Shown one piece after another: positions 1 through 33,384 of a stretch of 64,000 bases of DNA (positions are counted from its first letter, which is position 1; every line of letters starts with the position of its first letter). A model generated the notes under the pieces. That model was given only the letters and a program-made list of their open reading frames with translations, was not told the origin of the DNA and ran no database searches. The DNA is from an uncultured Candidatus Saccharibacteria bacterium. GTDB taxonomy: Bacteria > Patescibacteriota > Saccharimonadia > Saccharimonadales > JACDBH01. The translations under genes were made by a program, and so were the position numbers. The stretch covers positions 1,740-65,739 of the forward strand of contig CAYSJS010000001.1 in the NCBI GenBank assembly GCA_964431415.1. Reading direction: 5' to 3'.

Positions 1-1149
1 ATTGCAGCCGCGATTGAAGCCGACCAGAGCCGTGACGGCGTTAAAATCTTGAGTGTACTGAGCGCTGCAACCGCTCGCGGTATCCCGGTCAAGAGCTATG
101 GTGTCGACCCCGCAACCGGCCGTCTTGTCGCATCACGCCACCCAGTAGGTGTTATCGCCGCACAAAGTATCGGCGAGCCAGGTACGCAGCTAACTCTAAA
201 GACCTTCCATAGTGGTGGTGTGGCTGGTGCCGACATTACAACCGGTTTGCCGCGTGTTGAAGAGTTGTTTGAAGTACGCGCTCCAAAGGGTCAGGCGTAT
301 GTTTCTGACATCGATGGTGTGGCTAATGTATGGGAAGAGGGCGAAAACTACATTGTGCAGGTTACTGGTGACGAAAACCAAAAGGTTACCTTGCCGCTCG
401 AAGGCCGCACACCAAAAGTCGCCTCCGGATCCGACATTGCGATTGGTGATGTGATTGCCGAAGGTGCTAAGGGTGCAAGCCCGCTGATCGCGCCAATTGC
501 GGGTAAGGTTGACCTAACCGATAAAACAGCAACCATTAGCCCTGCAAAACAAGCGGTTGTGCGCTACGAAATCCCGGGCTTCAAACAAGTGGTTGTTAAA
601 GATGGCGACAAAGTAGTTGCAGGACAGAGATTGACGAACGGTTCTATTAACCTGCACGATCTCATGCGCCTCCAGGGTGTAGAGGCGACACAGCGCTACA
701 TCATGAACGAAATCTTGCGTATCTTCGCAAGCCAGGGTCAGAACATTGCCGACAAGCATTTAGAAATCATCGTGCGCCAAATGTTTGGCCGCGTACAGAT
801 TGAAGATGCGGGCGACAGCGACCTCGTTAACGGTGACGTTGCAAGCAAGCAAGCGGTGCTCGTACTCAACGAAGAGCTCGCTCGTGCAGGCAAGCAGCCA
901 GTGAAGTATAATCAGCTGCTGCTCGGTATTACGAAAGCAAGTCTTTCGACCGATTCGTTCTTGAGCGCTGCAAGCTTCCAAGATACAACGCGTGTGCTTA
1001 TCTCTGCCGCAACCAGTGGTCGCGTAGACTACCTGTACGGCTTGAAAGAAAACGTGATTCTTGGACGCCGCATTCCTGTGGGAACCGGTGCTAAATACAC
1101 CGAAGCCGAACAAGATCGCGCCGACGATCTCGTTACTCAGAACAGCTAA
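1..1149 (+). CDS. rpoC: DNA-directed RNA polymerase subunit beta' (C-terminal part; 5' end lies outside the window)
   Basis: Frame 1 is open from base 1. Translation carries conserved beta' C-terminal blocks (GEPGTQLTLKTFHSGGVAG, LLGITKASLSTDSFLSAASFQDTTRVL, ENVILGRRIPVGTG). Position upstream of rpsL-rpsG is typical. Confidence 0.93.
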   Translation: MAAAIEADQSRDGVKILSVLSAATARGIPVKSYGVDPATGRLVASRHPVGVIAAQSIGEPGTQLTLKTFHSGGVAGADITTGLPRVEELFEVRAPKGQAYVSDIDGVANVWEEGENYIVQVTGDENQKVTLPLEGRTPKVASGSDIAIGDVIAEGAKGASPLIAPIAGKVDLTDKTATISPAKQAVVRYEIPGFKQVVVKDGDKVVAGQRLTNGSINLHDLMRLQGVEATQRYIMNEILRIFASQGQNIADKHLEIIVRQMFGRVQIEDAGDSDLVNGDVASKQAVLVLNEELARAGKQPVKYNQLLLGITKASLSTDSFLSAASFQDTTRVLISAATSGRVDYLYGLKENVILGRRIPVGTGAKYTEAEQDRADDLVTQNS

Positions 1150-1172
1150 TTAGTAAACAAGTTAGCTGGGTG

Positions 1173-1222
1173 CAAGTGAGCAAGTGAAGACTTTTTATAA
1201 AGGGTTGGAACTTGCTCACTTG
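1173..1222 (+). terminator. Perfect 13-bp inverted repeat after rpoC (caagtgagcaagt / acttgctcacttg) with a 24-nt loop; no T-tract follows
   Basis: Read directly from the sequence: arms at 1173-1185 and 1210-1222. The function (terminator or processing site) is not established. Confidence 0.3.
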
Positions 1223-1256
1223 GTGTAAAAAGTAATATACAAGGTAGGATAACAAT

Positions 1257-1496
1257 ATGGGAATGACGATGAAGGGTCTACTTGATCCATATGTTTGTGA
1301 TTATGAATTGTGCCCAAATTTTCAGATAGCATTAGAAGGAGGCATGACTGACGATGAAGCGGCTGGTATTTGTTGTTCGGCTATGAAGCGCATTATAGGG
1401 GGAGACCCTGAAAGATCAGTTACTGCCGCTATGAATGGTGTAGAATGTGGACTTTTTCTAGCTCAAGTAGAAAATAATCAGCAAAAAGCTGAATGA
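1257..1496 (+). CDS. Hypothetical small Cys-rich protein (79 aa)
   Basis: ORF between rpoC and rpsL on the operon strand. No family recognised. Confidence 0.4.
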   Translation: MGMTMKGLLDPYVCDYELCPNFQIALEGGMTDDEAAGICCSAMKRIIGGDPERSVTAAMNGVECGLFLAQVENNQQKAE

Positions 1497-1566
1497 TTTT
1501 TATTTTCTGAAGCTGTTTACTGTGTAGGCTTGACAGATGTCCTAATACCACTTATGTCAATAGGAC

Positions 1567-1595
1567 TTGTGAACAACGAAACAATCTGTTAAAAT
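1567..1595 (+). promoter_or_regulatory. Candidate sigma-70-type promoter for rpsL (TTGTGA-N17-TAAAAT)
   Basis: Hexamers at 1567-1572 and 1590-1595 with a 17-nt spacer. The -35 is weak. Confidence 0.3.
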
Positions 1596-1692
1596 CTAGT
1601 GCAGAGTTTAAGTGTTATTAGATTCCTCGTGCTGAAGAAACTAATGACGCGACACAATTAATTAATAAGCCAGCGTATAGCGTGAGGCGTAT

Positions 1693-2176: not shown

Positions 2177-2377
2177 ATGTCATACGACGCAAGAGAAGTA
2201 GAAGCCGCTTTAATTAATTATGATCCAGAAACGAGTGCCGCTAGACAGCGTAGGCTAGAGGCTCGAAATAGACTCGCTGCAGCTATGCTCGTTGAATCAA
2301 TTGAAGCTAGCGAAGTCGACAGGCAACAAAGTCCACTGCTTCCAGGTGTAGTGGTTGTCTTGGAAGGAGAAATGTAA
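2177..2377 (+). CDS. Orphan 66-aa protein inserted between rpsL and rpsG
   Basis: The ATG lies 1 nt after the rpsL TAA, and the ORF's own TAA overlaps the rpsG ATG (TAATG). The ORF fills the whole gap. No family recognised. Confidence 0.5.
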   Translation: MSYDAREVEAALINYDPETSAARQRRLEARNRLAAAMLVESIEASEVDRQQSPLLPGVVVVLEGEM

Positions 2378-2856: not shown

Positions 2857-3093
2857 ATGGAAGTTCCTCAAAGTGTAATGAGTTTCGTCCAAAGACGGGT
2901 TGAAGCCGCAACGGGTAGACGTGAGATCTACGAAGGTCGCCTGTCTGTTGACCAAATGCATGGCCTTTCAGTGACGCCTGCTCAAGTTTTAATACGTGGC
3001 GCCCTTTGTACTTTGGAGGCTATTGCACAAGGCACAGAAGAATTTCTGACCTCAGATGAAAAGCTCGATGACTTATTTTCACGAAGAAAGTAA
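2857..3093 (+). CDS. Hypothetical 78-aa protein
   Basis: The ORF starts 3 nt after the rpsG stop on the same strand. No family recognised. Confidence 0.45.
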   Translation: MEVPQSVMSFVQRRVEAATGRREIYEGRLSVDQMHGLSVTPAQVLIRGALCTLEAIAQGTEEFLTSDEKLDDLFSRRK

Positions 3094-3134: not shown

Positions 3135-3344
3135 ATGATAATGAGTGAAGGTACGCCACAAAATGGATTTTCGCTTCTTCCTGAACGCTTCGCTCCGGAA
3201 GACCTTTCTGCGATCAGGGAGCTTGCAAGTGAACTCGATAATCCATCGATGGAAATCGTCAGGGCAGCCCTGGGAAGATTTGAGGAGCATATACTCAGAA
3301 GAAGAAATGAAGGTGGAGAAGGTACACCGCCCCCTACTATGTAG
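3135..3344 (+). CDS. Hypothetical 69-aa protein, weakly ribbon-helix-helix-like
   Basis: The segment FSLLPERFAPEDLSAIRELASELDNPSMEIVRAALGRF has a strand-helix-helix pattern (impression only). The start could instead be the ATG at 3141. Confidence 0.4.
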   Translation: MIMSEGTPQNGFSLLPERFAPEDLSAIRELASELDNPSMEIVRAALGRFEEHILRRRNEGGEGTPPPTM

Positions 3345-3367: not shown

Positions 3368-3634
3368 ATGGCAGAAATTGGAGGAAGACTCAAAGACAAT
3401 GCGTTCACTAATGCTGGCTTTGCCGCTCTGGACGACATTGCTGCTGCAGCTCTAAGGAGAGGTCGTCAGGGCCGGGGCTGTGATATTGAACTGCAACTGG
3501 CTTCCACGGGCGATACGTATCCCCTCGACCCGAGCAGGATTTCAGCCATTCAAGACGCGGTTACCTCCACAACTCTGATGCCAGCTGACGCTGTTAGATG
3601 TGTCGCGATGATTGTTCATGGTGTCATAAAATAA
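3368..3634 (+). CDS. Hypothetical 88-aa protein
   Basis: Same-strand ORF. No family recognised. Confidence 0.4.
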   Translation: MAEIGGRLKDNAFTNAGFAALDDIAAAALRRGRQGRGCDIELQLASTGDTYPLDPSRISAIQDAVTSTTLMPADAVRCVAMIVHGVIK

Positions 3635-3716: not shown

Positions 3717-4064
3717 GTGACACAGCAAGAAGCAGAAAATAGCAGAACCTCCCTTGTATTTGGCGTGTCCAGACAATCGGTAGAAGAGCAGTTTTTAAGC
3801 GGACAGGCCGAGAGTCCGTCGGCTATATATTTTGAGTTGTCGCGCCTCTACGTAGCACTTTCAGGATGTGTCGTAGTCGAGACCGACAATACGTTCTTGT
3901 CCGAAAGTGATTTGGCTACGGCCAAACGAGATGCAGAGGCGGCGCTTGCCTATAGTGTGGCGTATCGCAGTTTTTGCAGCGACACATTTCATAACGACAC
4001 CGTTCAACTTCAACTGCTTGCAGGCTATGTCGATAGCCTACTCAAGGCAAAAGACGAAAGCTAA
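3717..4064 (+). CDS. Hypothetical 115-aa acidic protein
   Basis: A GTG at 3717 is preceded by AGGAG (3704-3708). The longer ORF-track start at 3666 (TTG) lacks an RBS. Confidence 0.45.
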   Translation: MTQQEAENSRTSLVFGVSRQSVEEQFLSGQAESPSAIYFELSRLYVALSGCVVVETDNTFLSESDLATAKRDAEAALAYSVAYRSFCSDTFHNDTVQLQLLAGYVDSLLKAKDES

Positions 4065-6402: not shown

Positions 6403-6999
6403 ATGGCAGAACGTGAAATTGTACGTCTACCGGATGAAATAGAAAATCGCGCACTCACGATCTTGTGCGAAGGCGTGTCGAGCATTCAGGTGTCAATGTC
6501 AAGGCGGAGCATTGCAGAAGTATTTGCGAGTCCTGATTACGACGTAATGGTCGACGGAATTAAAAAGCTAGAGGAGCTTTACAGCATACTCGATCCGCCG
6601 GCTATTGTACTAAGACCGTCTCAAGCTGAAGGTGTGGATATAGATAATCTTCCTTCTCACGACCTAGTCGCCAATGTCGCGAGCGCTATAGCTCTATCAC
6701 AGACCGCGACCTATGATCAAAGAATGGAACTACTAGAAACTTGGGCGGGTATATCGTCAGACGGTCCTTATAGGACTATGCCCTCGCCAGAAGCGGCTTG
6801 GGTTGTTGCACAGGAACAACTTATTGACCAACGGGAATGGGCGACGCTCTCCAGGAATGAGGGCAGGATATTCGAAACAACTGCAATGCTTGAAGAGATC
6901 TACGCGGCCGGTCATCGCCCGAATATAGTAAAACACCTTGGCATACTTGCGAGCGGTGTAATCGGTACACTTGCTCGCGCCGTTTGGTATAGACGTTAA
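6403..6999 (+). CDS. Hypothetical 198-aa protein
   Basis: ORF directly after fusA. No family recognised. Confidence 0.5.
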   Translation: MAEREIVRLPDEIENRALTILCEGVSSIQVSMSRRSIAEVFASPDYDVMVDGIKKLEELYSILDPPAIVLRPSQAEGVDIDNLPSHDLVANVASAIALSQTATYDQRMELLETWAGISSDGPYRTMPSPEAAWVVAQEQLIDQREWATLSRNEGRIFETTAMLEEIYAAGHRPNIVKHLGILASGVIGTLARAVWYRR

Positions 7000-7045: not shown

Positions 7046-8278
7046 ATGAAGGGTAAAAGGGTAAAGTTTAACTGGCGCATGATAGCTTTGGCAGCAGCGC
7101 TGAGTTTGTCGGCGTTTATTAGACTGCCGGCAGCTGACGCAGCATGTCCTAACAATGCAGGCACGTATGGTTCTGTAAGCGGAAGCTTTACAATTCCAGC
7201 CGCTGGCACATATAAAGTGTGGAGCCGAATAATGCCCGATGCGTCATCGACTACAAACGATTCTTACACCTTAGAAATAGACGGCACCACCTGTGGGGTG
7301 ACGGTAGGTGATGCCGGTACTCTGCCCGCCAATACATGGACATGGGTTGATTACCAAAACGGCAACACTGCCAGCAAGGTTACGGTAACGCTCTCCGCCG
7401 GTACCCATACATACACGATGTTTGGACGAGAAAGCAATGTCATGGTTGATCGGGTTATCTTTGCTTCTAATGCAGCATGTGTAATTAGCGGTCTTGGCGA
7501 TAACTGCATACCTTCTGCTGGCGATACTACGTATCCTACGGTTTCTCTCACTGCGCCTACCAACGGAAGCACGGTGAGCAACACCGTTACCGTGACGGCG
7601 AACGCAGCTGACAACGTAGGAGTTGCCGCGGTTTCGTTTTACTTAGATGGCTCTGCGACGCCTTTTGCTACAGATTCAACCAGCCCATACAGCGTATCGT
7701 GGGTTACGTCTGGCGTGAGCAACGGCAGCCATACACTTACTGCCAAGGCAGCCGATACTTCCGGACTTGTAACTACTTCTTCCGGAGTGGCAGTTACTGT
7801 CGCAAACACGGTGCCTGACACCACCTCGCCTACCGTATCGTTCACTGCTCCTTCTGTGGGAGCAACCCTAAGCGGTACGACAACGGTTACTATGAACGCG
7901 AGTGACAATGTGGGTGTAACCAGAGTTGAACTCTATGCAGATGGCACGCTTATAGGCACAGATACACAGAGTCCGTATAACTTCAGCGTAAACACTACCA
8001 GCTATACAAATGGCAGCCATACATTTATGGCAAGAGCATATGATACTGCAAATAATACGCCGGGCCAGGCTTCGGTTACGGTAACAGTTAACAATGTTAT
8101 TGCAACGCCGAAGGCAGGTGATGTGAACGGTGACAACAAGATTGATGTGTTTGATGCCTCGATTTTGCTCTCGAACTGGGGCAAATCCGGGATGAGCAAG
8201 GCTCAAGGTGACCTGAATGCCGATGGAACCGTGAATGTGTTTGACGCTTCGATATTATTAGCAAACTGGGGGAAATAA
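7046..8278 (+). CDS. Secreted protein: signal peptide, CBM-like beta-sandwich, two Ig-like domains, C-terminal dockerin
   Basis: The N-terminal hydrophobic signal ends in AADA. Two tandem repeats of about 95 aa are present (PTVSLTAPTNGSTVSNTVTVTANAADNVGV... / PTVSFTAPSVGATLSGTTTVTMNASDNVGV...). The C-terminus has duplicated Ca-binding dockerin segments (GDVNGDNKIDVFDASILLSNWGK / GDLNADGTVNVFDASILLANWGK). Confidence 0.75.
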   Translation: MKGKRVKFNWRMIALAAALSLSAFIRLPAADAACPNNAGTYGSVSGSFTIPAAGTYKVWSRIMPDASSTTNDSYTLEIDGTTCGVTVGDAGTLPANTWTWVDYQNGNTASKVTVTLSAGTHTYTMFGRESNVMVDRVIFASNAACVISGLGDNCIPSAGDTTYPTVSLTAPTNGSTVSNTVTVTANAADNVGVAAVSFYLDGSATPFATDSTSPYSVSWVTSGVSNGSHTLTAKAADTSGLVTTSSGVAVTVANTVPDTTSPTVSFTAPSVGATLSGTTTVTMNASDNVGVTRVELYADGTLIGTDTQSPYNFSVNTTSYTNGSHTFMARAYDTANNTPGQASVTVTVNNVIATPKAGDVNGDNKIDVFDASILLSNWGKSGMSKAQGDLNADGTVNVFDASILLANWGK

Positions 8279-8281
8279 GGT

Positions 8282-9502
8282 ATGGGTGTGGTAAAACGAA
8301 CTAAAGCACTACTGCTTGCAGCGATTATGGTAGTCGTGCCGCTGTTCGCTTCTGGTCACGCAGCCGCTGCAGGCTCGGCAAGCTTTAGTTTGAGTCCAAC
8401 CGGCGGAAGCTTTGTGAAGGGCAGCACGCTTACTGTTACGGTTAATGTATCCAGTTCAGACCAGATCAATACCGTTCAAGCCGACATAACATATGACGCA
8501 GCAAAGCTGCAGTATGCTTCGATTGACGGCTCAGGCAGCGCGTTTGACTTCCCACTGGCTGCATCTGGCGGTGGCGGTTCGGTGCAAATCGCACGTGGAG
8601 TTTCTGGTGGCGCAACAGTAAGCGGAACCAAGAAACTTGCTTCAGTTAACTTCACTGTTTTGGTGTCCGGTACTACTGCAACACTGAGTTTTGCTTCCAG
8701 CTCGGCAATCTTGTCTCCTGGCGGCAGCGGTACGACAAACGTATGGAACGGTAATACTACGGGAGGTTCATATACTTTGACAGCTCCTGTTGAAAGTACG
8801 CCTCCACCAGCTAGCGGTTCATCCGGATCTTCGGGTTCTGGTTCAAGCGGTGGAAACAAGAATAATACGCCAGCCCAGCCCTCTAAGCCGGCACAGCCTG
8901 CCGCCCCCGCACAACCTGCTTCTCCCGAGCAGCCTGTTGTAACCAGCGCCCCAGCTGCGAATACCAAGCATCTTGTGGCAATCAAAGTCGTGGACAAAAA
9001 TGACAAAACCAAAAAATCGCTGGATGTGCGCTTGAACGGGGTGACTGTTAAGACTGATGACAAAGGTATTGCTAGCTTTTCTGATGTGCCAACCGGAACC
9101 CACACGGTGACGGTATTTACCTCAAAGGATGTTTCGACGGATATGACCATAGAGGTAAAAGACGGCGACACTACTGCGGTTCAAAGCTATACATTCAAAC
9201 TACCTCAGTCATCGAGCAAAAAATGGATGTATCTAATACTTATCATCCCTGCAGCAATCCTTATTGTTGGGTTGATTCTGGTGGTACGGAGTAAACTCAA
9301 AAATAAGTTAAAAAATGTATATCAAGGAACGGCTCCGGCTGCGTCGGCAATAACCGGTGATTTTGATGCACGTGCAGCCGGTGTACATAAATCATTAGCT
9401 GAAGAGGGTCAACCAGTGGCCCCGCCTGCAACCGTAATCCGTCCAACTGTAACCAACGAGACAGCCAACGAAACCGAGCACGAAAAAGAAAACGGAGAAT
9501 AA
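8282..9502 (+). CDS. Membrane-anchored cohesin-domain protein
   Basis: Domain order: signal peptide, cohesin-like module, linker, beta-sandwich segment, one TM helix. The cohesin-like module reads SASFSLSPTGGSFVKGSTLTVTVNV...VQADITYDAAKLQY...GTKKLASVNFTV. The linker is rich in Pro, Ala and Ser (PAQPSKPAQPAAPAQPASPEQP). The TM helix is WMYLILIIPAAILIVGLILVV. Confidence 0.7.
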   Translation: MGVVKRTKALLLAAIMVVVPLFASGHAAAAGSASFSLSPTGGSFVKGSTLTVTVNVSSSDQINTVQADITYDAAKLQYASIDGSGSAFDFPLAASGGGGSVQIARGVSGGATVSGTKKLASVNFTVLVSGTTATLSFASSSAILSPGGSGTTNVWNGNTTGGSYTLTAPVESTPPPASGSSGSSGSGSSGGNKNNTPAQPSKPAQPAAPAQPASPEQPVVTSAPAANTKHLVAIKVVDKNDKTKKSLDVRLNGVTVKTDDKGIASFSDVPTGTHTVTVFTSKDVSTDMTIEVKDGDTTAVQSYTFKLPQSSSKKWMYLILIIPAAILIVGLILVVRSKLKNKLKNVYQGTAPAASAITGDFDARAAGVHKSLAEEGQPVAPPATVIRPTVTNETANETEHEKENGE

Positions 9503-9504: not shown

Positions 9505-11892
9505 GTGCCGGTTCGGCAAATACAGCAGTCTCATCTTGCTGTTCGTAGAGTCATGACACGTTTTAACATATTCTATACAAGGAATAAGAGGTTTGTCGCG
9601 CCAGCTTTGTTTAGCATTGCCTTTGGTCTGCTTGGTCTTATTACGATTTTACTAACACAAGCGGCATCTACGGATTATTTGATAGAGCCGGAAACAGGGA
9701 CTCTCAGCGGAAATGCTGTATCGGTTAATGACGCCGGAGCATCAAATGGCTCCGCGGTTAAGTTTGCTGCAGCCAACGGCGGTAGCTGGAAGACACTAAA
9801 AATTGGCGCGGGTGGTTTTTTGACAGGGATAGATATGTCCAAAGACGGTACGACCCGTGTGGTCCGCACTGATACATACGGAGCATACATATGGCAAACA
9901 AACGAATGGAAGCAGCTGGTGACCAAATCCAGTATGCCGGCTGATGATATTTTGCCATTCACGGGCGGCGGGGTATTTGAAATCGCGGTCGCTCCATCTA
10001 ACGGTAATAGAATATATATGGCTTGGCACGGCACGGTATATATAAGCGAGAACAAAGGCTCTACCTGGTCTAAAACAACGCTAACCGGTAAGGTTTTTGA
10101 TGGCAATGACGGGTACAGAGTTAACGGCAGGAAGATGGTGGTCGATCCGATTAATCCGGACGTAGTCTACTTTGGAATCCCAAACGATGGCGTTTACGTA
10201 ACCACCAACAAAGGCTCTAGCTGGGCTAAGGTAAGTGCCATACCGGTTGCAAATGATGCAGGATACAGTGGCATGGCTTATTACGAAAACGGTGGCCAGA
10301 CTGCCGGAAAAACAAAGACCCTTATTATTCCGGTCTCTGGCGGTAGTGTATACCGTACTGCCGATGCGGGATCTACCTGGAGTAGCATAGGCGGAATCTC
10401 TGACATACAAACCGCTGCAATGTCTACCAATGGCACGTACTATGCTACGAGCTACCCGAACATTTACCGGTACAAGAATGGCGCTTGGTCTGTGATCCTT
10501 GCAAACACAAATGGAAATATGCATTCCGTAGCCGTGGATCCAAATGATCCAACTCATATTGTCTTAGGCCGTGAAAGCGGTGAGATCATCCAAAGCTATA
10601 ACGAGGGAGCTAGTTGGACGAACATCGCCTGGGACCTTAAACAGCGGGTTGCGACAGACATACCCTGGCTCGCCTGGACGGATGAAAATTACATGTCCAA
10701 TGGATTCATGATGTTTGACACGGCAGTACCAGACAAGCTTTGGTTTGCTCAAGGAATTGGCGTATGGCATCTTAAGCCATCGCAAAACGTAAACTCCTAC
10801 ACGTGGAACTCACAAAGCGCCGGAATTGAACAGTTAGTTATAAACGACATAATAAGTCCGCCTGGCGGTAAGCCGATTATTGCAGTATGGGACCGTGGAC
10901 ATTTTAGGATCAACGACCCCGACCAATACCCTGCGACCCACGGACCTACCAACGCTTTTGACAGCACCTGGGACTTGGATTATTCGGGGGGCACGCCTTC
11001 TTTCTTGGTTGCTAACTCCAGTAATTTTGTGCACAAAACAATCAATGCGGGTTATTCTAGCGATGGCGGTGTGACGTGGCAAAAGTTTGCATCAATGCCA
11101 GCCAATGCCGGAAATAACCCAGATATATATGGATATGGCGGCATTGCAGTTGGCGACACTAACCATATGGTATGGATGGGCGGATCAAGTAAGTGGCCTT
11201 ACTATACTGCCAACAGAGGAGCCTCATGGCAGCCCATATCTATGGCTGGTCTAAACCAAGCGACGGCCGATTTAAGCGGTTTTCAGTGGGGTATGTATTT
11301 GCATCGCCATACGGTCGCCTCCGACAAAGTTACTATGAATACTTTTTATCTGCTCTATCTTGCAGGCAACGACAATCAAATGGGTTTTTACCGTTCTACC
11401 GATGGAGGTGCCAACTGGTCCATTGTGGGCAGCATAGCAAATAACAGCGCAGTGTCTAATGATATACGATGGGCAAGCTATAATGCCGAACTTCAAGCCG
11501 TGCCAGGCAAAGCCGGCCACTTATTCTTTACGCCAGGACATTCCGGCACTAGTCCCGATTCGCTAACTCCTTCTGATCAAAAGTTCATACGCTCTACGGA
11601 TGGCGGAGCCACCTGGACGGCAGTCGGCAACGGCAGCGTAAAAGAAGTATATAAGTTTGGATATGGCAAAGCGAAGGACGCTGGCGGCTATCCTTCGATT
11701 TATATTATTGGATGGGTAAGCAACCAGTACGGCATATGGCGGTCAGATGATGAAGGAGTAACGTGGGCAAAGATTGGTGATTACCCAAACGACAGCCTTG
11801 ACTCCGTTGCGGCTATAAGTGGTGATATGAACACATATGGAACCGTCTACATCGGTCTGGGTGGCTCGGGTGCAGTGTATTACAAACTGTAA
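9505..11892 (+). CDS. BNR/Asp-box repeat beta-propeller protein (GH74/sortilin-like) with an N-terminal membrane anchor
   Basis: About nine Asp-box-like motifs are present (SENKGSTW, TTNKGSSW, TADAGSTW, SSDGGVTW, STDGGANW, STDGGATW, SDDEGVTW and others). GTG start with a GGAGA RBS. An ATG at 9553 is an alternative start. Confidence 0.7.
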   Translation: MPVRQIQQSHLAVRRVMTRFNIFYTRNKRFVAPALFSIAFGLLGLITILLTQAASTDYLIEPETGTLSGNAVSVNDAGASNGSAVKFAAANGGSWKTLKIGAGGFLTGIDMSKDGTTRVVRTDTYGAYIWQTNEWKQLVTKSSMPADDILPFTGGGVFEIAVAPSNGNRIYMAWHGTVYISENKGSTWSKTTLTGKVFDGNDGYRVNGRKMVVDPINPDVVYFGIPNDGVYVTTNKGSSWAKVSAIPVANDAGYSGMAYYENGGQTAGKTKTLIIPVSGGSVYRTADAGSTWSSIGGISDIQTAAMSTNGTYYATSYPNIYRYKNGAWSVILANTNGNMHSVAVDPNDPTHIVLGRESGEIIQSYNEGASWTNIAWDLKQRVATDIPWLAWTDENYMSNGFMMFDTAVPDKLWFAQGIGVWHLKPSQNVNSYTWNSQSAGIEQLVINDIISPPGGKPIIAVWDRGHFRINDPDQYPATHGPTNAFDSTWDLDYSGGTPSFLVANSSNFVHKTINAGYSSDGGVTWQKFASMPANAGNNPDIYGYGGIAVGDTNHMVWMGGSSKWPYYTANRGASWQPISMAGLNQATADLSGFQWGMYLHRHTVASDKVTMNTFYLLYLAGNDNQMGFYRSTDGGANWSIVGSIANNSAVSNDIRWASYNAELQAVPGKAGHLFFTPGHSGTSPDSLTPSDQKFIRSTDGGATWTAVGNGSVKEVYKFGYGKAKDAGGYPSIYIIGWVSNQYGIWRSDDEGVTWAKIGDYPNDSLDSVAAISGDMNTYGTVYIGLGGSGAVYYKL

Positions 11893-11960: not shown

Positions 11961-12557
11961 ATGGCTAAAAATTTCTTAATGCCAACAAAATATGAAGCGG
12001 CAAGCATGTCGGCTTTTGCGGTGTTTGTTTTATTTGCCTTATCGGCTCCACCAATTATTAAACAATCAAATATAGATGTATATTTATTCTTAAGCGACCG
12101 TTTTAGCGGTTGGATTCACCTGCGCTTAGAAGGTCTCGATACGCCTCTTATTACTTCCGTTGTTACTTTCTTGCTTTGGTCGGTAGTGGGTGCACTCGTA
12201 TATATTCTTTTATGGGCAGGCGTAACGGTCGTGAAAGATCTCGATTCCCATATTTCGCCATTTAGACGACTCATGATCCCGAGAGATATAAAAGTCAAAA
12301 AAAGTATTGGGCTTGCACTTGCGCGTATAGGCGTTAGGTTGACGGCTTGCATTGCGCTTATTGCGTGGATTATCTATAGTTTTGAGGCTATTCTGCCGTA
12401 TGCCGTCTTGCTGTTTGGGAATGCATTTGTACGGATTGACCGCTACAGTCCTGTGCAGTTTATTATTGCGTTCTTGCTTACTATGGCGGTTTTTTATGTA
12501 TCCACTGTATTGGCGCGCTTGATTGCTCTTAGAAGCCGCGTGTTAAAAAGCAGTTAG
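11961..12557 (+). CDS. Hypothetical integral membrane protein (198 aa)
   Basis: Several hydrophobic segments in the translation. No family recognised. Confidence 0.5.
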   Translation: MAKNFLMPTKYEAASMSAFAVFVLFALSAPPIIKQSNIDVYLFLSDRFSGWIHLRLEGLDTPLITSVVTFLLWSVVGALVYILLWAGVTVVKDLDSHISPFRRLMIPRDIKVKKSIGLALARIGVRLTACIALIAWIIYSFEAILPYAVLLFGNAFVRIDRYSPVQFIIAFLLTMAVFYVSTVLARLIALRSRVLKSS

Positions 12558-12600
12558 GTGCGTTTCCAAAAGAAAAGCCTTAAAAGTTATTTGCTAACAC

Positions 12601-12629
12601 TTTACAAACCCTTTACGCTGCGGTATATT
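12601..12629 (+). promoter_or_regulatory. Candidate promoter upstream of tuf (TTTACA-N17-TATATT, preceded by AACAC)
   Basis: Hexamers at 12601-12606 and 12624-12629 with an exact 17-nt spacer. Confidence 0.5.
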
Positions 12630-12856
12630 TAATACATCTCGCGAGAGGGCATTGTTCGATTTGCTAACAAGTAGATCACAATATGGACCGCGAAAAGAAA
12701 ATTACAATATCAACTATCTAAACGATCTTTAATACATCGACACTAGAGACTGTTTTAAGGCCAAGAACTTGAAGGCATTTGCCAGTAAAGTCGCAGCTTT
12801 TGATACACTAGAGTGGGTGATGTAGTAGAATCGTTGAAGATAATAAAGGAGACAAA

Positions 12857-14065: not shown

Positions 14066-14105
14066 AGAAGCCTCCTGGGATTTCCCCGGGAGGCTTCTTC
14101 TTTAA
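14066..14105 (+). terminator. Rho-independent terminator after tuf
   Basis: agaagcctcctggg / cccgggaggcttct form a 14-bp stem with one G-U pair, followed by ttctttaaa. Confidence 0.7.
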
Positions 14106-14158: not shown

Positions 14159-14506
14159 ATGAATAATAATGAAATAAGCCCTGTTGCTTCGAATGCTGCA
14201 TTTCGGTTTGCAGAGCAAGGGACCATTGGTCGGACATTGGCGGCCACGATTATAGACACTCCTCAAAGCGAGAGAATTGCCCTGGCCGAGTCCTTGGCAA
14301 GTCTATCCGAGACACATGACGAAGAAGGTGTGCGTACGCGTGCCGGCTGGCTTGCCCGTCAGTTAGTCAAAGAAGTAATCGAAGAAGAACCTTTTTTGCA
14401 CTATGTAGCCGACAGAGAACCGACTTCGTATCGTGATAAACTCGGTAGGCGTGCATTTACGAATGGTCGGCATTCTTCAGGCTTTACACAGCACACCAGT
14501 CCTTAA
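14159..14506 (+). CDS. Hypothetical 115-aa protein
   Basis: ORF after the tuf terminator. No family recognised. Confidence 0.45.
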   Translation: MNNNEISPVASNAAFRFAEQGTIGRTLAATIIDTPQSERIALAESLASLSETHDEEGVRTRAGWLARQLVKEVIEEEPFLHYVADREPTSYRDKLGRRAFTNGRHSSGFTQHTSP

Positions 14507-14579: not shown

Positions 14580-15290
14580 GTGAAAAAAGTTACAGCAAAC
14601 AATGTTTTGGCGTGCTTTTCGCCGCCTGTTATGATCGCGACCTTTCTCTTGGAAGGCATACTTGCTGTCTATACGTTCATGCAGTACCGCATGAGCACAA
14701 AGACCAGACTTATCATCCTATTACTTATTAATTTATCTTTGTTCCAGCTTGCTGAATTTTTGGTGTGCACAAACAGTAGTGTAGCCACGCAGGCATCGCG
14801 TTTTGGCTATGCATCGATCACCTTATTGCCGCCGCTCGGACTCTATTTGATGTCCGAGCTCACCTATCCAATGCGAAAAATAGCTGCATTGTTCATGTTT
14901 ATGAGTGCCGTAAGTATCATGGCTTACTTTCTGCTTTCTCCGTCTGCGTTTAACAGCTATCAGTGCACCGGCAATTACGTTATATTCCAGATCGGCACTT
15001 CGCAGATGCGTTTATATAGTCTGTACTACTTTGGTTTGATCGGGTTAAGTCTCTGGAAGGGCGCGCGGTTTTTGACCGAGCATCCAAAAGCCGCCAAAAA
15101 AGTTCGATCAGCCGTACGATGGTTTATAGCGGGGTATCTCGTCTTTATTGTGCCGGTTGCTGTGCTGGTAGTTTTTAACCCTAATACGAAAAAAGCGGTG
15201 CCATCTATCATGTGCGGTTTTGCCGTAAGCTTAGCCCTTATCTTAACGGCAAAAGTTGCACCCTATTCTCTTAAAAAACGGACAAACTAG
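14580..15290 (+). CDS. Hypothetical polytopic membrane protein (236 aa)
   Basis: About 6-7 hydrophobic helices. GTG start without a clear RBS, so the start is uncertain. Confidence 0.55.
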   Translation: MKKVTANNVLACFSPPVMIATFLLEGILAVYTFMQYRMSTKTRLIILLLINLSLFQLAEFLVCTNSSVATQASRFGYASITLLPPLGLYLMSELTYPMRKIAALFMFMSAVSIMAYFLLSPSAFNSYQCTGNYVIFQIGTSQMRLYSLYYFGLIGLSLWKGARFLTEHPKAAKKVRSAVRWFIAGYLVFIVPVAVLVVFNPNTKKAVPSIMCGFAVSLALILTAKVAPYSLKKRTN

Positions 15291-18109: not shown

Positions 18110-18131
18110 TACGTGTAGAATATACAACAGA

Positions 18132-20883: not shown

Positions 20884-21132
20884 ATGAGCACTTTTGAACA
20901 AACACCAGACAGTTGGAATGCAGGATTTGAAACTGCTCAATTATTTCCATCTACACCAACAAGTTTTGATCCTCAGCGCAGGTTATTTGCTGCCGCTTGT
21001 GAGGCTGCTCAATGCGGTGTCTCTGGCGTTCCTAACGGCGATAGTCTACTTACTGATCAAGAATTTATTGATGGATTCAGAACAGGTCTCATGCATACGA
21101 CCATAGCAGTAGAAGGAGAAGGAAATGTCTAG
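20884..21132 (+). CDS. Orphan 82-aa acidic protein inserted between rplB and rpsS
   Basis: The ATG is 2 nt after the rplB stop. Its 3' end overlaps the rpsS start by 8 nt and contains the rpsS RBS (GAAGGAGAAGG). No family recognised. Confidence 0.5.
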
Positions 21133-23695: not shown

Positions 23696-24039
23696 TGAAT
23701 ACTCAAACCAAGAAACAAGCATTCAAGATTCGCCTTAAGGTCGGAGATACTGTTATTGTGCGAAGCGGTAAATACAAGGGTAAGACGGGTAAGATAACCG
23801 CTACTCATCCATTTGAAAACAAAGTTACCGTTGAAGGCATTAATATTGTCAAAAAGCATGTTAAGCCTAACCGCACACATCCCCAGGGCGACATTGTTGA
23901 AATTACCAAGCCTATTTGGGTAAGCAAGGTTGGGATCGTAGAGCCAACCAGCAAGAAAGCAAGCAAGATTGAGCACAAAGTTGACGCTAAAGGTGTAAAA
24001 ACCCGTGTATTCAAGCGCACCGGCAAGGAGATAAAGTAA
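23695..24039 (+). CDS. rplX: 50S ribosomal protein L24
   Basis: KVGDTVIVRSGKYKGKTGKI (KOW motif), synteny. Confidence 0.95.
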   Translation: MNTQTKKQAFKIRLKVGDTVIVRSGKYKGKTGKITATHPFENKVTVEGINIVKKHVKPNRTHPQGDIVEITKPIWVSKVGIVEPTSKKASKIEHKVDAKGVKTRVFKRTGKEIK

Positions 24040-24275
24040 TGGGTAGATTTGAAGTTCAATTGCAACCAGGTGAAGCTTGGGTAAGTGGCGGTTTAAGATA
24101 TGCCGATGGATATATAGGAGCTATGGATAGTAATGACCTAGATACTTTATACGTGCAAAGACGTGCTGCTGAAGAAAGACTAAGGGGTGAGCAGCCCAAC
24201 AATCCGGCTTTGCCGGATGATGGCGCGATGAGCGGGGATATTTCCCGCTCATGGGCCGATAAGGAGATCAAGTAA
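24039..24275 (+). CDS. Orphan 78-aa acidic protein inserted between rplX and rplE
   Basis: Both ends are TAATG overlaps: rplX stop with its own ATG at 24037-24041, and its own stop with the rplE ATG at 24273-24277. No family recognised. Confidence 0.55.
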   Translation: MGRFEVQLQPGEAWVSGGLRYADGYIGAMDSNDLDTLYVQRRAAEERLRGEQPNNPALPDDGAMSGDISRSWADKEIK

Positions 24276-24853
24276 TGGCCACTAAAACTACTACCGTTGC
24301 AACCGGCGCACGCTTAAAGAGTCTGTACAACGACAAATACGCCGCCGAACTCCTTAAGGAGCTTGAGCTTGCAAACGTACACCAGGTTCCTAAACTTCAG
24401 AAGATCACCATCAATGTTGGTCTTGGACGCGCAAAAGATGACAAAAAGTTGATTGAAGTGGCCGCAAATACACTCACTAAGATTACTGGCCAGCATCCTG
24501 TTGAAACCGTCGCCAAGCAGTCTATCGCAAGCTTTAAGCTCCGTGAAGGCAACAAAATTGGCCTTAAAGTTACTCTCCGCGGCGACCGCATGTACGAATT
24601 CATGGACAGACTTGTAAACATCGTACTGCCACGGCTTCGCGACTTCCACGGTGTCAGCGCAAAAGCGTTCGACCGCCAGGGCAACTACGCGCTTGGCCTA
24701 AGCGAACAGTCAGTTTTTCCTGAGCTTACCTTTGAAGAAACCACCACTCCACACGGATTGCAGGTACTATTCACAATTAAGTCAGAAGAACCAGCACATG
24801 CCAGGGCACTGCTCACAAAGTTTGGCATGCCATTTGAAAAGGAGAATAAATAA
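24275..24853 (+). CDS. rplE: 50S ribosomal protein L5
   Basis: [25 protein letters not shown]... Confidence 0.97.
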
Positions 24854-31129: not shown

Positions 31130-31149
31130 GGAGGCGGGGAACAATCACT

Positions 31150-32088
31150 ATGTCAAAACAGATCCACACACCAACACTCAGCAAGGTCGACGACCACACT
31201 ACTACGAGCAGTACTTTCGTTATCGAACCTTTGCACACCGGCTACGGTATGACCCTCGGTAACTCTATCCGCCGCGTTTTGCTTTCAAGCATTGCCGGCG
31301 CAGCAATTACCGCTTTTAAGATCGAAGGCGCAACCCACGAGTTTACAACCGTTAAGGGCGTAAAAGAAGATGTCGTTGACATCATGCTGAACCTCAAGGG
31401 CGTTCGCTTCCGTGTATACAGCCAGGAACCACAAACCCTGCGTATTGTTAAAAAAGGTAAGGGCGTTGTTACTGCTAAAGATATTCAGCTGAATGCCGAT
31501 GTCGAAGTAGTAAACCCAGGCCATGTAATTGCTACGGTTGACGATGACAAGACCACCTTTACTATGGACCTCGTCGTCGAAACAGGCCGCGGCTACCGCT
31601 CTATAGACGAAAGCGCAGCCAAAAAGGCGAGCGATATGATCGCACTTGACGCAATCTTTAGCCCGGTACTCCGCGTTAGGTACAAGGTAGAGAACACCCG
31701 CGTTGGTCAAACCACTGACCTCGACAAGTTACTTCTTACTGTAGAGACTGACGGTTCGATCACCCCACGCGATGCCTTTGAAGAGGCAAATGCGATTTTG
31801 GTCAACCAATATACAGCTCTTGCTGGTCAGACCCGCGTTGAAGCACCTGCACCGTTAATCGACAGTGCTGCAAAAACCGGTGAAAGCGGCGACGAAGCAC
31901 CCGCACTCATGACTCCAATCGAAGACCTGAACCTGAGCGCACGCACTACCAACGCACTCATCAATAACGAAATTCACACACTGAAGGACTTATTTAGCCT
32001 TGGTGATGCCGAACTTCGCGACCTAAAAGGTTTTGGCAGCAAAGCACTTGATGAAGTCAAAGAAAAAATGGCGGAGTTGGAGCTTTAG
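31150..32088 (+). CDS. rpoA: DNA-directed RNA polymerase subunit alpha
   Basis: IEPLHTGYGMTLGNSIRRVLLSSI..., C-terminal domain LNLSARTTNAL. Synteny. Confidence 0.96.
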   Translation: MSKQIHTPTLSKVDDHTTTSSTFVIEPLHTGYGMTLGNSIRRVLLSSIAGAAITAFKIEGATHEFTTVKGVKEDVVDIMLNLKGVRFRVYSQEPQTLRIVKKGKGVVTAKDIQLNADVEVVNPGHVIATVDDDKTTFTMDLVVETGRGYRSIDESAAKKASDMIALDAIFSPVLRVRYKVENTRVGQTTDLDKLLLTVETDGSITPRDAFEEANAILVNQYTALAGQTRVEAPAPLIDSAAKTGESGDEAPALMTPIEDLNLSARTTNALINNEIHTLKDLFSLGDAELRDLKGFGSKALDEVKEKMAELEL

Positions 32089-32090
32089 AT

Positions 32091-32546
32091 ATGCATCGAC
32101 ACGGATATAAAGGCCGCAAATTCGGCCGTGAACGAGATCAGCGCGCCGCCCTCATTAAGGGCTTGGCTTCTGCGCTCGTTGATCATGGAGCAATAGAAAC
32201 CACACTTCCAAAAGCAAAAGCTGTAGTACCCTACACAGAAAAACTCATCACTAAAGCTAAGCGCGGCGATCTTCACAACCGCCGCCAAGTGATTAGCTCA
32301 CTAAACACGCTCGCGACCGCTCACAAGCTCGTTGACGAGATAGCACCAAAGCTAACCCACCGCGTAAGCGGACACTTGCGCATCGAAAAGATCGGCACAC
32401 GCCGCGGTGACAACAGCGACATGGCACGCGTAAGTTTTGTTGATGACCTAAAGCAGGCTCCGGTGGCAAAGCCAGCCGCGCCAGCAGAGTCAAGAGTCAA
32501 GAGTAAAGAGTCAAGAAAAGCTCCAAAGACAAAGGAGACGAAATAA
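32091..32546 (+). CDS. rplQ: 50S ribosomal protein L17 (C-terminal low-complexity extension)
   Basis: MHRHGYKGRKFGRERDQR...TTLPKAK. Confidence 0.95.
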   Translation: MHRHGYKGRKFGRERDQRAALIKGLASALVDHGAIETTLPKAKAVVPYTEKLITKAKRGDLHNRRQVISSLNTLATAHKLVDEIAPKLTHRVSGHLRIEKIGTRRGDNSDMARVSFVDDLKQAPVAKPAAPAESRVKSKESRKAPKTKETK

Positions 32547-32986
32547 TGAAGACTTATTCTGCTAAACCAAGTGACGTAACCCGAGCATGGTACATTGTTG
32601 ACGCTTCAGAAGCACCGCTCGGACGCGTTGCTACCAAGATCGCAACTCTGCTGACCGGCAAAGGTAAACCAATGTTTACAAAACACATCGACTGCGGCGA
32701 CTACGTTGTCGTCATTAACGCCGACAAAGTTGTGGTAACCGGCAAAAAAACCGAAGATAAGATGTACTACCACCACAGCCAATTCCCAGGTGGGTTAAAA
32801 GAGCTTCGCCTTAAAGAAGTTATGGTGAAGGATCCAACCAAGGTACTCACAGAAGCAGTTCGCGGCATGTTGCCTGTTAACAAACTTCGCCCAGAACGCT
32901 TGCAGCGTCTTAAAGTATATGCCGGTGCAGAACATAATCACGCCGCACAGCAACCCATTGCAGTGAGCGTGAAAGGAGATAAATAA
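32546..32986 (+). CDS. rplM: 50S ribosomal protein L13
   Basis: WYIVDASEAPLGRVATKIATLLTGKGKP... Confidence 0.96.
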   Translation: MKTYSAKPSDVTRAWYIVDASEAPLGRVATKIATLLTGKGKPMFTKHIDCGDYVVVINADKVVVTGKKTEDKMYYHHSQFPGGLKELRLKEVMVKDPTKVLTEAVRGMLPVNKLRPERLQRLKVYAGAEHNHAAQQPIAVSVKGDK

Positions 32987-32988
32987 TT

Positions 32989-33384
32989 ATGGCGAAAGAT
33001 ACCTATTTCTACGCTCTAGGCCGTCGTAAGCGCGCTACAGCTCGTGTCCGCCTCCAGAGCGGCAAAGGCTCTATTGTGATCAACGACAAGCCTGCAGAAG
33101 AATACTTGAGTGGCAGCGAATATCTGCTTACTGAGCTTAAGCAGCCATTTGCCGTGATTGAAAAAGATGCTTTTGACGTAACCGTCAGAGTTGACGGCGG
33201 CGGCTTGGCCGGCCAAGTTGATGCAATCCGCTTAGGAATTGCCAAGACTCTTGCTGCCATGAATGAAGATCTAAAAGGCACGTTGAAACGTGCAGAACTT
33301 CTTGGACGCGATCCTCGCGAGAAAGAACGCAAGAAGTTTGGTCTGAAGAAGGCCCGCAAGCAACGCCAGTTCACAAAACGCTAG
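32989..33384 (+). CDS. rpsI: 30S ribosomal protein S9
   Basis: GRRKRATARVRLQSGKGSIVIN... with C-terminal ...KKARKQRQFTKR. Confidence 0.96.
   Translation: MAKDTYFYALGRRKRATARVRLQSGKGSIVINDKPAEEYLSGSEYLLTELKQPFAVIEKDAFDVTVRVDGGGLAGQVDAIRLGIAKTLAAMNEDLKGTLKRAELLGRDPREKERKKFGLKKARKQRQFTKR

Follow-up and report, generated by a model that had tools for sequence, protein, structure and literature searches.

Introduction

The str-S10-spc cluster is the textbook example of a frozen gene order and provides the backbone of genome-resolved phylogenies of uncultured bacteria. Saccharibacteria, as Rickettsia, have reduced genomes. Invasion between the operons of the rpoBC-str-S10-spc-alpha cluster has been described in Gammaproteobacteria and Bacilli (PMC8046335), and the invaders (PMC8046335 and PMC6735719) are small numbers of unrelated genes placed between concatenated translation operons, such as tusDCB at rpoBC|str and bfd-bfr at str|S10, with content that was later lost or replaced. 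Rickettsia palindromic elements (RPEs) are repeats that encode a conserved peptide in one frame and reside in many unrelated host genes (reviewed in PMC10969869). Here, we analyze a stretch of 64,000 nucleotides (nt) from an uncultured Candidatus Saccharibacteria bacterium (contig CAYSJS010000001.1; hereafter, the window) in which the ribosomal cluster is interrupted by 18 additional open reading frames (ORFs), i01-i18. One of these, i18, contains an 84-nt two-hairpin element that recurs at ribosomal gene junctions in other Saccharibacteria.

Other familiar sequences also invite comparison. The REP/BIME, ERIC, and BOX repeats are transcribed intercistronic hairpins that can stabilize the upstream mRNA or modulate downstream expression, and they occupy untranslated spacers in hundreds of copies genome-wide. 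The Escherichia coli spc operon has an autoregulatory S8 site at the rplX/rplE junction. Structures of this class in ribosomal protein mRNAs have been surveyed (PMC3616713). Short ORFs that arise de novo or by overprinting and are maintained by translational coupling are likewise a known kind. The analysis below is built on sequence alone. We consider it rather probable that two processes account for the interruptions, namely, gene turnover at operon boundaries and the appearance inside operons of ORFs that bridge the gap between neighboring genes.

Results

Layout of the Cluster and Reality of the Inserts

The rpoC-str-S10-spc-alpha cluster that hosts all of the inserts extends on the + strand from the end of rpoC to rpsI (1..33384; translations and Pfam). 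The order read from the + strand translation is rpoC, rpsL, rpsG, fusA, tuf, rpsJ, rplC-D-W-B, rpsS, rplV, rpsC, rplP, rpmC, rpsQ, rplN-X-E, rpsN, rpsH, rplF-R, rpsE, rplO, secY, infA, rpmJ, rpsM-K-D, rpoA, rplQ-M, and rpsI. Pfam confirms S12 and S10, and most of the other ribosomal genes are supported by precomputed Pfam labels on identical contigs of the same species. A scan with L4, using one genome per species, indicates the Saccharibacteria lineage; the top species representative has 70% L4 identity and CP025011 has 61%.

The 18 extra ORFs, all on the + strand, occupy eight junctions between rpoC and rplE: rpoC|rpsL (i01), rpsL|rpsG (i02), rpsG|fusA (i03-i06), fusA|tuf (i07-i11, 6494 nt), tuf|rpsJ (i12-i14), rpsJ|rplC (i15 and i16), rplB|rpsS (i17), and rplX|rplE (i18). 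A preliminary description of this DNA had claimed that the conserved ribosomal order is interrupted by extra ORFs on the operon strand, and both the translation and 20 further contigs bear this out. It spoke of nine interrupted junctions, although its own list named eight, which is the number we count. The five ORFs that it placed at rpsG|fusA reduce to the four called, as a candidate fifth (3907-4080) overlaps i06 in another frame; its counts at fusA|tuf (five, in 6.5 kb), tuf|rpsJ (three), and rpsJ|rplC (two) agree with ours. It had also called the inserts mostly orphan. Indeed, Pfam, PHROGs, and NCBIfam all lack a match to the nine small ORFs of 66-115 amino acids (aa) and to i07, Pfam also lacks one to i15, and among 15 billion proteins, the 90%-identity clusters to which the ten inserted ORFs looked up belong have 1-2 members each. 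No paralogy was found among the inserts or between them and the rest of the window.

The same layout is present in 20 contigs from other samples (ENA, Logan, and NCBI). Each of the 18 inserts was recognized by gene callers, in up to 19 independent contigs with 99.9-100% identity to the window apart from a few divergent ends. These contigs are 99.8-100% identical to the window except for L082 and L097 (∼99%; L001-L133 label the related loci and contigs compared with the window), each of which has one divergent end, with mismatches confined to ends in rpsD and fusA, outside the inserts. Since 20 independent, near-identical contigs share the layout, the inserts are real and not an assembly artifact. 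When population variation was examined for the ratio of nonsynonymous to synonymous substitution rates (dN/dS), the same-species contigs were identical or nearly so over the inserts, and mismatch clusters lay at contig ends. Base composition reveals no foreign island in the window. When stop codons are ignored, a codon model trained on the nonribosomal genes of the window gives the annotated frame the top rank in 13 of the 18 inserts and the second rank in i01, i08, i11, i13, and i17, where the gap to the best frame is ≤0.025 for all but i11. The codon scores of the inserted ORFs are below those of the ribosomal genes, and G+C content at third codon positions (GC3) is low in i01, i02, i03, and i17.

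Turnover of the Inserts in Relatives

We used tblastn to place the ribosomal genes of 61 Saccharibacteria loci, each from a different species, and of 19 outgroup loci, and tabulated every gap; closer relatives were reached through L24 and S7 homologues and exact-protein look-ups. The rpsJ|rplC gap is 0.6-5.5 kb in every Saccharibacteria locus where it is measurable. The tuf|rpsJ, fusA|tuf, and rpsG|fusA junctions are usually expanded too, and rpsH|rplF reaches 0.7-4.4 kb in the animal-associated clade. Most such junctions in the outgroups are tens of bases long, with rpsJ|rplC at ∼340 nt at most. Across the 61 species, the flanking gene order is kept while the gap ORFs are mostly unrelated from one species to another. 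Homologues at the locus were found only for i01, i13, and i16; for the other 15 inserts, neither tblastn against the 80 loci (cutoff 1e-4) nor phmmer against ORFs from the gaps of relatives (E 0.1) gave any, and blastn detected no DNA-level similarity of i02, i03-i06, i07, i15, or i17 to related loci.

The closer relatives show what several of these junctions look like when empty. At rplX|rplE, rplX overlaps rplE in L133 (L24 94% identical) and in L101-L104 (L24 87-88%). At rplB|rpsS, 2 nt separate rplB from rpsS in L101 and L103, and six other species carry unrelated ORFs there. At rpsL|rpsG, rpsL is 2 nt from rpsG in L105/L106 (S7 93%) and L108, and an unrelated 73-aa ORF fills the junction in L107 (S7 91%). 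The fusA|tuf junction is compact in L103/L108, with 137 nt between the genes. Among the ORFs located 5′ of fusA, shared families are limited to the pair L011/L019 and to near-identical 41-aa ORFs of L053/L054. Because relatives with S7 or L24 proteins 84-94% identical have empty or unrelated sites, i02, i17, i18, and the 6.5-kb fusA|tuf block are recent. By these comparisons, they are specific to the species or to a very narrow group and do not appear as conserved ribosome-associated factors.

Bridging ORFs Inside Operons

The inserts i02, i03, i17, and i18 are all on the + strand, and their starts fall -1 to +3 nt from the upstream stop. The 66-aa i02 (2177..2377) begins 1 nt past the rpsL stop, and its own stop overlaps the rpsG start in the sequence TAATG. 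The 78-aa i03 (2857..3093), which has no homologue in relatives, begins 3 nt past the rpsG stop. The acidic, 82-aa i17 (20884..21132) starts at the position of the ancestral rpsS start and overlaps the present rpsS start by 8 nt. The 78-aa i18 (24039..24275) corresponds to a 236-nt insertion relative to L133 and L101-L104. The overlap of i02, i17, and i18 with the next start is 1-8 nt, and the Shine-Dalgarno site of the gene that follows lies within their last codons.

This arrangement is not confined to the window. Among the intraoperon gaps of 150-500 bp in the 61 species, 20 of 21 have a + strand frame that is open over ≥80% of the gap, as compared to a mean of 3.4 and a maximum of 7 in 200 shuffles, and to 4 on the minus strand. 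Most of these frames span the whole gap to within a few bases. The insert lengths of 236, 197, 209, and 116 nt are all 2 mod 3, and the bridging frame is kept in each. The peptides, by comparison, are unrelated to each other even by relaxed phmmer, and the junction ORFs are mostly acidic (isoelectric point, pI, <6 in 25 of 32, median 4.8). The bridging ORFs i02, i03, i17, and i18 thus have the appearance of young, species-specific, mostly acidic ORFs in which only openness is kept between species. We infer that an insertion inside an operon would be tolerated only if it is translated from the upstream stop to the downstream start.

Further ORFs were noted in relatives at junctions that are uninterrupted in the window or lie beyond its cluster. 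A 95-aa ORF occupies rplN|rplX in L109 (1061-1348) and a 105-aa ORF does so in L001, at a junction that is uninterrupted in the window. A 40-aa ORF fills rpmJ|rpsM in L101 (9274-9396). In L105 (3710-3892), a very acidic 60-aa ORF is called between rpoB and rpoC, from which the bridging pattern may extend to the rpoBC operon. A different repeat of 149 nt occurs twice in L019 (12789-12941 and 16236-16400; 77% identity), at rplV|rpsC and rpsN|rpsH, where it forms bridging ORFs of 50 and 54 aa with basic, not acidic, peptides. With this second repeat family, junction-hopping sequences are not limited to one family.

A Two-Hairpin Element at Ribosomal Junctions

Insert i18 lies between two copies of the rplX/rplE junction. 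The left copy (AAGGAGATAAAGTAATGG, 24025..24042, + strand) is identical at 17/18 positions to the right copy (AAGGAGATCAAGTAATGG, 24261..24278, + strand), which supplies the rplE Shine-Dalgarno site and start. The score of this 18-nt flanking repeat is reached in 0 of 500 shuffles. Because the junction is repeated, i18 ends in KEIK-stop as L24 does. When junction duplication was tested for all inserts, it was significant only for i18; elsewhere, it was found at rplC|rplD of L002 and, marginally, in L016.

The 3′ half of i18 contains the two-hairpin element (subfamily A, 84 nt, 24178..24261, + strand), which scores 101.5 bits with covariance model R1 and 89.7 bits with R2. An exhaustive phmmer search of 1.84 billion representatives returned three other small proteins, which match only the C-terminal 30-40 residues of i18. 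Two of these are at rplX|rplE (L109/L110 and L111), and one is at rplV|rpsC in the more distant L112/L113. In DNA comparisons of the window with L109 or L112, the element block (∼80 nt) shows 89-90.5% identity, as against 55-78% for the flanking ribosomal genes and 45-46%, the level of random sequence, for the 5′ part of the i18 insert. In an alignment of five sequences, 96.6% of cells in the two hairpins are paired and five pairs are compensatory; none of 500 shuffles reaches the covariation score, and slid controls pair at 35-54%. With nine sequences, compensatory changes are seen in 12 of 20 pairs, and two motifs, GAGCAGC and GCGC(G/A)(A/U)UGAG, are invariant.

In total, nine genomes contain ten distinct copies of the element, a few of which were recovered from more than one contig, and the copies lie 5′ of six genes: rpsJ, rplD, rplW, rpsC, rplN, and rplE. 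The more diverged copies of subfamily B are at rplC|rplD and rplX|rplE of L002, at rplD|rplW of L006, at rplC|rplD of L058, and before rpsJ in L014. The first L002 copy reproduces the architecture of i18, with a perfect 21-nt (21/21) junction repeat, a 116-nt period, and a 38-aa ORF. In L007/L126, the copy before rplN extends rpsQ in frame at the 3′ end, which gives S17 a C-terminal extension. All of the copies found with covariance models and a motif scan are in sense orientation, and ∼15-25 nt separate the end of the element from the ribosomal protein start codon that follows. Wherever the upstream side is available, the copy sits within an ORF whose end falls on the downstream start or overlaps it. 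Four codon-phase combinations are used to read the invariant motifs; therefore, conservation is at the level of the nucleotide sequence or RNA and not of the protein. In L014 (121-420), rpsJ itself was seen to carry a Lys/Ala-rich N-terminal extension of ∼70 residues directly 3′ of the element copy.

The invariant single-stranded motifs and the strict position and orientation favor a function for the element, and its high identity across distant genomes favors recent spread. At gathering scores, the only Rfam hits in the window are four tRNAs; at E ≤10, 23950-24350 gives three weak matches far below gathering scores. No copy of the element was found elsewhere in the 64-kb window, including its 30 kb of nonribosomal DNA, or in the nonribosomal flanks of the other loci, for which the compared DNA amounts to 10-20 kb per genome around ribosomal loci. 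The exhaustive protein search likewise returned no copies away from ribosomal junctions, and two scans of viral contigs gave chance 18-mer matches only, with no covariance-model support. A pattern scan of metagenomes was too degenerate, with 18 of 19 matches in unrelated high-GC coding sequence and L126 as the sole true copy.

Other identities for i18 were considered and rejected. It is not a tandem duplication of the end of rplX, for only the 18-nt junction is repeated and just KEIK is shared with L24. An integron attC cassette is contradicted by GCCCAAC, which some copies have but L111 replaces with GCACGAC and subfamily B lacks, and which by eye has no GTTRRRY partner. A classical MITE, or miniature inverted-repeat transposable element, would have an inverted repeat across the insert ends, which is missing, and a direct repeat of 2-10 bp rather than 18-21 nt. 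A conserved protein domain is at odds with invariant motifs that are read in several frames.

Predicted Transcription Units

The larger gaps of the cluster coincide with predicted ends and beginnings of transcripts. An intrinsic terminator follows tuf (14066..14104, + strand; a 14-bp G+C-rich hairpin and U-tract, folding z -8.9), and a strong one found by terminator scan lies 24 nt 3′ of the rpsJ stop (16579..16612, + strand; 12-bp stem and T-run). Just 3′ of the rpoC stop is a long hairpin with no clear T-run (1173..1222, + strand; folding z -7.8, sliding-window z -7.6). Conserved noncoding stretches, all on the + strand, precede rpsL (1581..1665; blastn 72-84% to L105-L108; promoter-like site 1567-1595), tuf (12595..12699; 76-81% to L001, L103, and L105-L108; promoter-like site 12601-12629), rpsJ (16023..16109; 73-84% to L003, L009, L015, and L105-L107), and rplC (18110..18285, 175 nt; 80-82% over 168-175 nt to L103 and L105-L108). 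The DNA of the adjoining inserts has no detectable similarity to these relatives, and we therefore regard the stretches, at 72-84% identity, as conserved leaders or promoters. A structured stretch at ∼16083-16215, just 5′ of rpsJ, folds as a long hairpin (z about -6 for 16083-16182, the best 100-nt window). The rplC leader has shorter blastn matches in the more distant L003, L004, L009, L012, and L015 and no Rfam match, and it may be an unrecognized leader of the rplC...rpsH operon.

We counted hairpin plus T-run sites ≤100 nt downstream of each gene across the related loci. Such terminator-like sites follow tuf in 27/34 loci, rpsJ in 24/38, rpsH in 21/50, rplO in 15/32, rpoC in 9/18, fusA in 9/33, and rpsC in 5/57; rpsI, the last gene of the cluster, has them in 3/3, and every other gene in ≤2 loci. 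The high scorers are the genes that precede kilobase-sized gaps, and for this reason, we predict that the Saccharibacteria "super-operon" is in fact several transcription units. From rplC to rpsI, the window has no + strand terminator comparable to those of tuf and rpsJ. No terminator follows fusA in the window either, so that the fusA|tuf boundary is marked only by the tuf leader on its 3′ side.

With the tuf and rpsJ terminators and the rpsL, rpsJ, and rplC leaders, i01 and i12-i16 fall between predicted units; the same placement is only partly evident for i07-i11 and is not seen for i02, i03, i17, or i18. On these predictions, i01 and i07-i16 lie at operon boundaries, as the distal rpsG|fusA block probably does too.

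Inserts at Predicted Operon Boundaries

The following inserts are again all on the + strand. At rpoC|rpsL, i01 (1257..1496) encodes a small acidic protein of 79 aa with no Pfam, PHROGs, or NCBIfam match. It is the only small insert with a homologue in a relative, an 85-aa protein at the same junction in L105/L106 (E 1.6e-13). The two proteins (the homologue at L105 7820-8077) share the pattern CxxxCPNF...C...AM(K/R)RI(I/L)G...NG..CG with four conserved cysteines, and i01 may be a small metal-binding or disulfide protein between rpoC and rpsL. The orphan ORFs i04 (67 aa, 3141..3344) and i05 (88 aa, 3368..3634) are supported by gene call and codon model and have no homologue. The 115-aa orphan i06 (3717..4064) is followed by a 210-nt spacer before fusA that includes a promoter-like site (4107-4135).

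The 6.5-kb fusA|tuf insert opens with i07 (6403..6999), an orphan of 198 aa. It continues with i08 (7046..8278), a secreted protein of 410 aa with two Big_7 Ig domains (Pfam 3.4e-41) and a dockerin (Dockerin_1, 4e-8); i09 (8282..9502), a 406-aa cohesin-domain protein (Pfam 3.7e-8) with a C-terminal membrane anchor read from the sequence; and i10 (9505..11892), a BNR/sortilin-type β-propeller protein of 795 aa (Sortilin-Vps10, 2.2e-18; BNR, 4.1e-9). The block ends with i11 (11961..12557), a 198-aa multipass membrane protein that the sequence and Pfam assign to no family. Dockerin, cohesin, and BNR propeller are adjacent at 7046-11892, downstream of fusA, which suggests that i08-i10 could form a cohesin-dockerin surface assembly of an episymbiont. 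As a separate observation on the surroundings of tuf, tRNA-Thr, tRNA-Tyr, and a second tRNA-Thr lie at 41961-44024, ∼28 kb downstream of that gene. In the E. coli tufB operon, tRNA genes are upstream of tuf, unlike the arrangement in the window.

Between tuf and rpsJ, i12 (115 aa, 14159..14506) is an orphan known from gene call and codon model, with no homologue. The multipass membrane protein i13 (14631..15290) is 219 aa as called, though open from 14580, and has homologues at tuf|rpsJ in L061 and at rpsJ|rplC in L053/L054 (E 3e-75 to 1.6e-45). From sequence and Pfam, i14 (212 aa, 15353..15991) is an orphan with a proline-rich N-terminus followed by a membrane anchor. At rpsJ|rplC, i15 (167 aa, 16638..17141) is a predicted lipoprotein with an LTGC lipobox and is also an orphan. 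The 301-aa i16 (17204..18109) resembles glycoside hydrolase (GH) TIM-barrel proteins; its Pfam scores are weak, with GH42 and GH10 exceeding the curated cutoff and GH2_C falling short. Homologues in L001, L105, and L108 (E 1e-129 to 5e-141) make i16 a conserved resident of rpsJ|rplC in this subclade. The larger inserts are envelope proteins (i08-i11, i13, and i15) plus the GH-like i16.

Relatives hold other residents at these positions. A family of membrane proteins of 88-124 aa (22 members in a first clustering; L001-L054; L108 17378-17662) occurs in the rpsJ|rplC gap of most Saccharibacteria and is absent from the whole 64-kb window. The window also lacks the NUDIX gene that is found together with the GH-like one in L105 and L107.

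Discussion

Proposed Explanation and Objections

Our preferred explanation, which we consider rather probable, combines operon-boundary turnover with intraoperon bridging ORFs. The cluster would be split into units by terminators after tuf and rpsJ (in many species also after rpoC, fusA, rpsH, and rplO) and by leaders 5′ of rpsL, tuf, rpsJ, and rplC. The gaps between units would be hot spots for lineage-specific genes: the surface cohesin/dockerin/BNR set, membrane proteins, the GH-like enzyme, and, in relatives, NUDIX. Inside operons, short DNA would occasionally be inserted exactly at a stop/start overlap and would survive only if an open frame runs from the upstream stop to the downstream start. 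Such a frame would leave translation unbroken, so that coupling and mRNA protection are kept. Rho, if Saccharibacteria possess it, would put a cost on gaps that are not translated. We propose that i18 was born by the 236-nt insertion, which would have duplicated 18 nt of the rplX/rplE junction and carried in the 84-nt element, and that the element spread to junctions before rpsJ, rplD, rplW, rpsC, rplN, and rplE in other Saccharibacteria. The anatomy of the element, its distribution, its covariation, and its independence from reading frame are observed. The translation of the bridging ORFs by ribosomes, selection against untranslated gaps, and the role of the element, whether functional (processing, stability, or translational control) or selfish, are what we infer from these.

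The preliminary description had offered a permissive landing pad as one explanation, and this has stood up well, since the same junctions are expanded in nearly all Saccharibacteria with different and mostly unrelated content; the data support predicted operon boundaries as the landing pads for large inserts and stop/start overlaps as those for bridging ORFs. Its other explanation, lineage-specific ribosome-associated or coregulated factors, fares poorly because relatives lack i02, i17, and i18 or carry unrelated ORFs, with i01 as a possible exception. Alignment of the locus with related Saccharibacteria showed the expanded junctions but not conservation of the inserts beyond the homologues of i01, i13, and i16. 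The statement that no known feature class explains the locus was too strong. The larger inserts are mostly at boundaries marked by terminators or leaders, which corresponds to the known invasion between operons (PMC8046335), and i18 behaves like a translated palindromic element (PMC10969869).

Several points weigh against this explanation. Promoter-like sites are no commoner than in shuffled sequence, and the operon-boundary calls, like the translation of the bridging ORFs, are predictions. Searches for a junction duplication or a conserved element came up empty for i02, i03-i06, and i17, and in the codon test another frame does as well as the annotated one for i01 and i17. Within the clade of 84-94% identity, the element has a patchy distribution at rplX|rplE, being present in the window, L109, and L111 and absent from L133 and L101-L104, which fits either repeated insertion or a single insertion followed by precise deletions across the 18-nt repeat. 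Finally, the restriction of the element to ribosomal junctions is partly a matter of ascertainment because the DNA compared is nearly all from ribosomal loci.

For the element itself, we tentatively advance a bolder proposal. The sequence with invariant GAGCAGC ... GCGCGAUGAG could be a new class of sense-strand RNA specific to Saccharibacteria ribosomal operons, which copies itself into stop/start overlaps by junction duplication, is obligatorily translated, and serves the cistron downstream as an operator site for processing, stability, or translation. In that case, the species-specific bridging ORFs around it and at other junctions would be a natural, recurrent source of de novo genes in the most conserved bacterial gene cluster.

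Alternative Explanations

The strongest competitor concerns the same element, which might be a purely selfish palindromic repeat of the Rickettsia kind, functionless, conserved through recent horizontal spread, and found in open frames because other insertions are lethal. Several of the properties described above suit such a repeat, including its presence at different junctions in different genomes and twice in L002, the duplicated target sequence on its flanks, an identity above that of the flanking genes, the in-frame fusion to rpsQ in L007, and a reduced host genome comparable to that of Rickettsia. A selfish repeat would not, however, be expected to have every copy on the sense strand and ending ∼15-25 nt before a ribosomal start codon, or to keep two single-stranded motifs invariant in nine copies despite the diverged hairpins of the subfamilies, which suggests sequence-specific recognition. 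The element also has no terminal inverted repeats and no copy in the window's 30 kb of nonribosomal DNA or in the nonribosomal flanks of other loci. We judge a purely selfish origin to be somewhat unlikely.

A second alternative holds that the small ORFs are functional lineage-specific microproteins, coexpressed with ribosomal proteins (e.g., as acidic escorts for basic neighbors) and too fast-evolving to be recognized. This would account for the low pI (<6 in 25 of 32, median 4.8), the tight coupling to ribosomal genes, and the coding scores of most inserts in the annotated frame, and i01 with its four Cys is conserved in a relative. It is difficult to reconcile with the absence of i02, i17, and i18 from relatives with 84-94% identical ribosomal proteins, with the lack of similarity between same-junction ORFs of different species even by relaxed phmmer, and with the i18 family, where different frames read through the conserved part and the 5′ part is no more similar than random sequence. 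We therefore regard microproteins as distinctly improbable.

We give very little credence to the idea that the gaps are noncoding spacers and the ORFs chance or gene-caller artifacts. The ORFs are short, have no homologues, and score below ribosomal genes in codon usage, with low GC3 in some (i01, i02, and i17), but 20 of 21 intraoperon gaps are open on the sense strand versus 3.4 expected and 4 antisense, start and stop codons fall precisely on the stops and starts of neighbors, and the bridging frame survives in inserts of 236, 197, 209, and 116 nt alike. Chimeric assemblies or contaminants in a single metagenome bin, to which the mismatch clusters at the ends of several contigs might point, are of negligible probability given 20 contigs from different ENA, Logan, and NCBI samples with the same layout at 99.8-100% identity except for the L082 and L097 ends, and given the same kind of insert in related species.

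Significance

If the Saccharibacteria cluster is split into terminator-bounded units with very fast gene turnover, as predicted here, its use in synteny and binning checks is affected. The surface proteins, i.e., the cohesin/dockerin/BNR set and the GH-like enzyme, would be placed beside the most highly expressed genes of an episymbiont. In the bridging rule, selection for unbroken translation and the birth of new ORFs find a concrete instance that can be tested. As for the two-hairpin element, cultivable Saccharibacteria offer a direct test of this candidate for a new RNA family or mobile element.

Comparison with Known Systems

Neither the bridging-ORF rule nor the two-hairpin junction element was found in Rfam or in the literature searched, and each has relatives among described systems. 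Like the ribosomal autoregulatory structures exemplified by the S8 site, the element lies just 5′ of or overlapping the start of a ribosomal cistron, and it even shares the rplX|rplE junction. It differs from S8-type operators in having no Rfam match; moreover, the same element precedes six different genes and therefore is not a classical single-operator site. As with REP/BIME, ERIC, and BOX, it is a hairpin repeat between cistrons, but it sits inside a bridging ORF, and few copies have been found. The bridging ORFs resemble de novo ORFs in being species-specific, without homologues, and in overlapping the starts and stops of their neighbors; they differ in that they recur across a lineage at many junctions of the most conserved bacterial cluster.

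The resemblance to RPEs is closer. Both are short hairpin-forming repeats of reduced genomes that are tolerated within translated sequence, here as the S17 extension in L007 and elsewhere as most of a mini-ORF, and repetition at several unrelated sites is a trait that the element shares with RPEs and MITEs alike. The single-frame conserved peptide of RPEs is not found, as the two-hairpin element is read in several frames, and so far it is seen only at ribosomal junctions and on the sense strand. In contrast to RPEs and MITEs, it also has invariant single-stranded motifs, no terminal inverted repeats, and a junction duplication of 18-21 nt in place of a short target-site duplication.

For the boundary inserts, the counterpart is operon-cluster invasion, and the large inserts at rpoC|rpsL and tuf|rpsJ fit its pattern (PMC8046335 and PMC6735719). 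By comparison, the present locus has more boundaries, with tuf, rpsJ, and rplC each having a leader or terminator of its own, and far faster turnover, with content that differs in almost every species. It also has intraoperon insertions at stop/start overlaps, of which none were found in the consulted parts of PMC8046335 and PMC6735719. Most of what we describe belongs to known kinds, operon-cluster invasion (PMC8046335) and translated palindromic elements (PMC10969869), in a new form.

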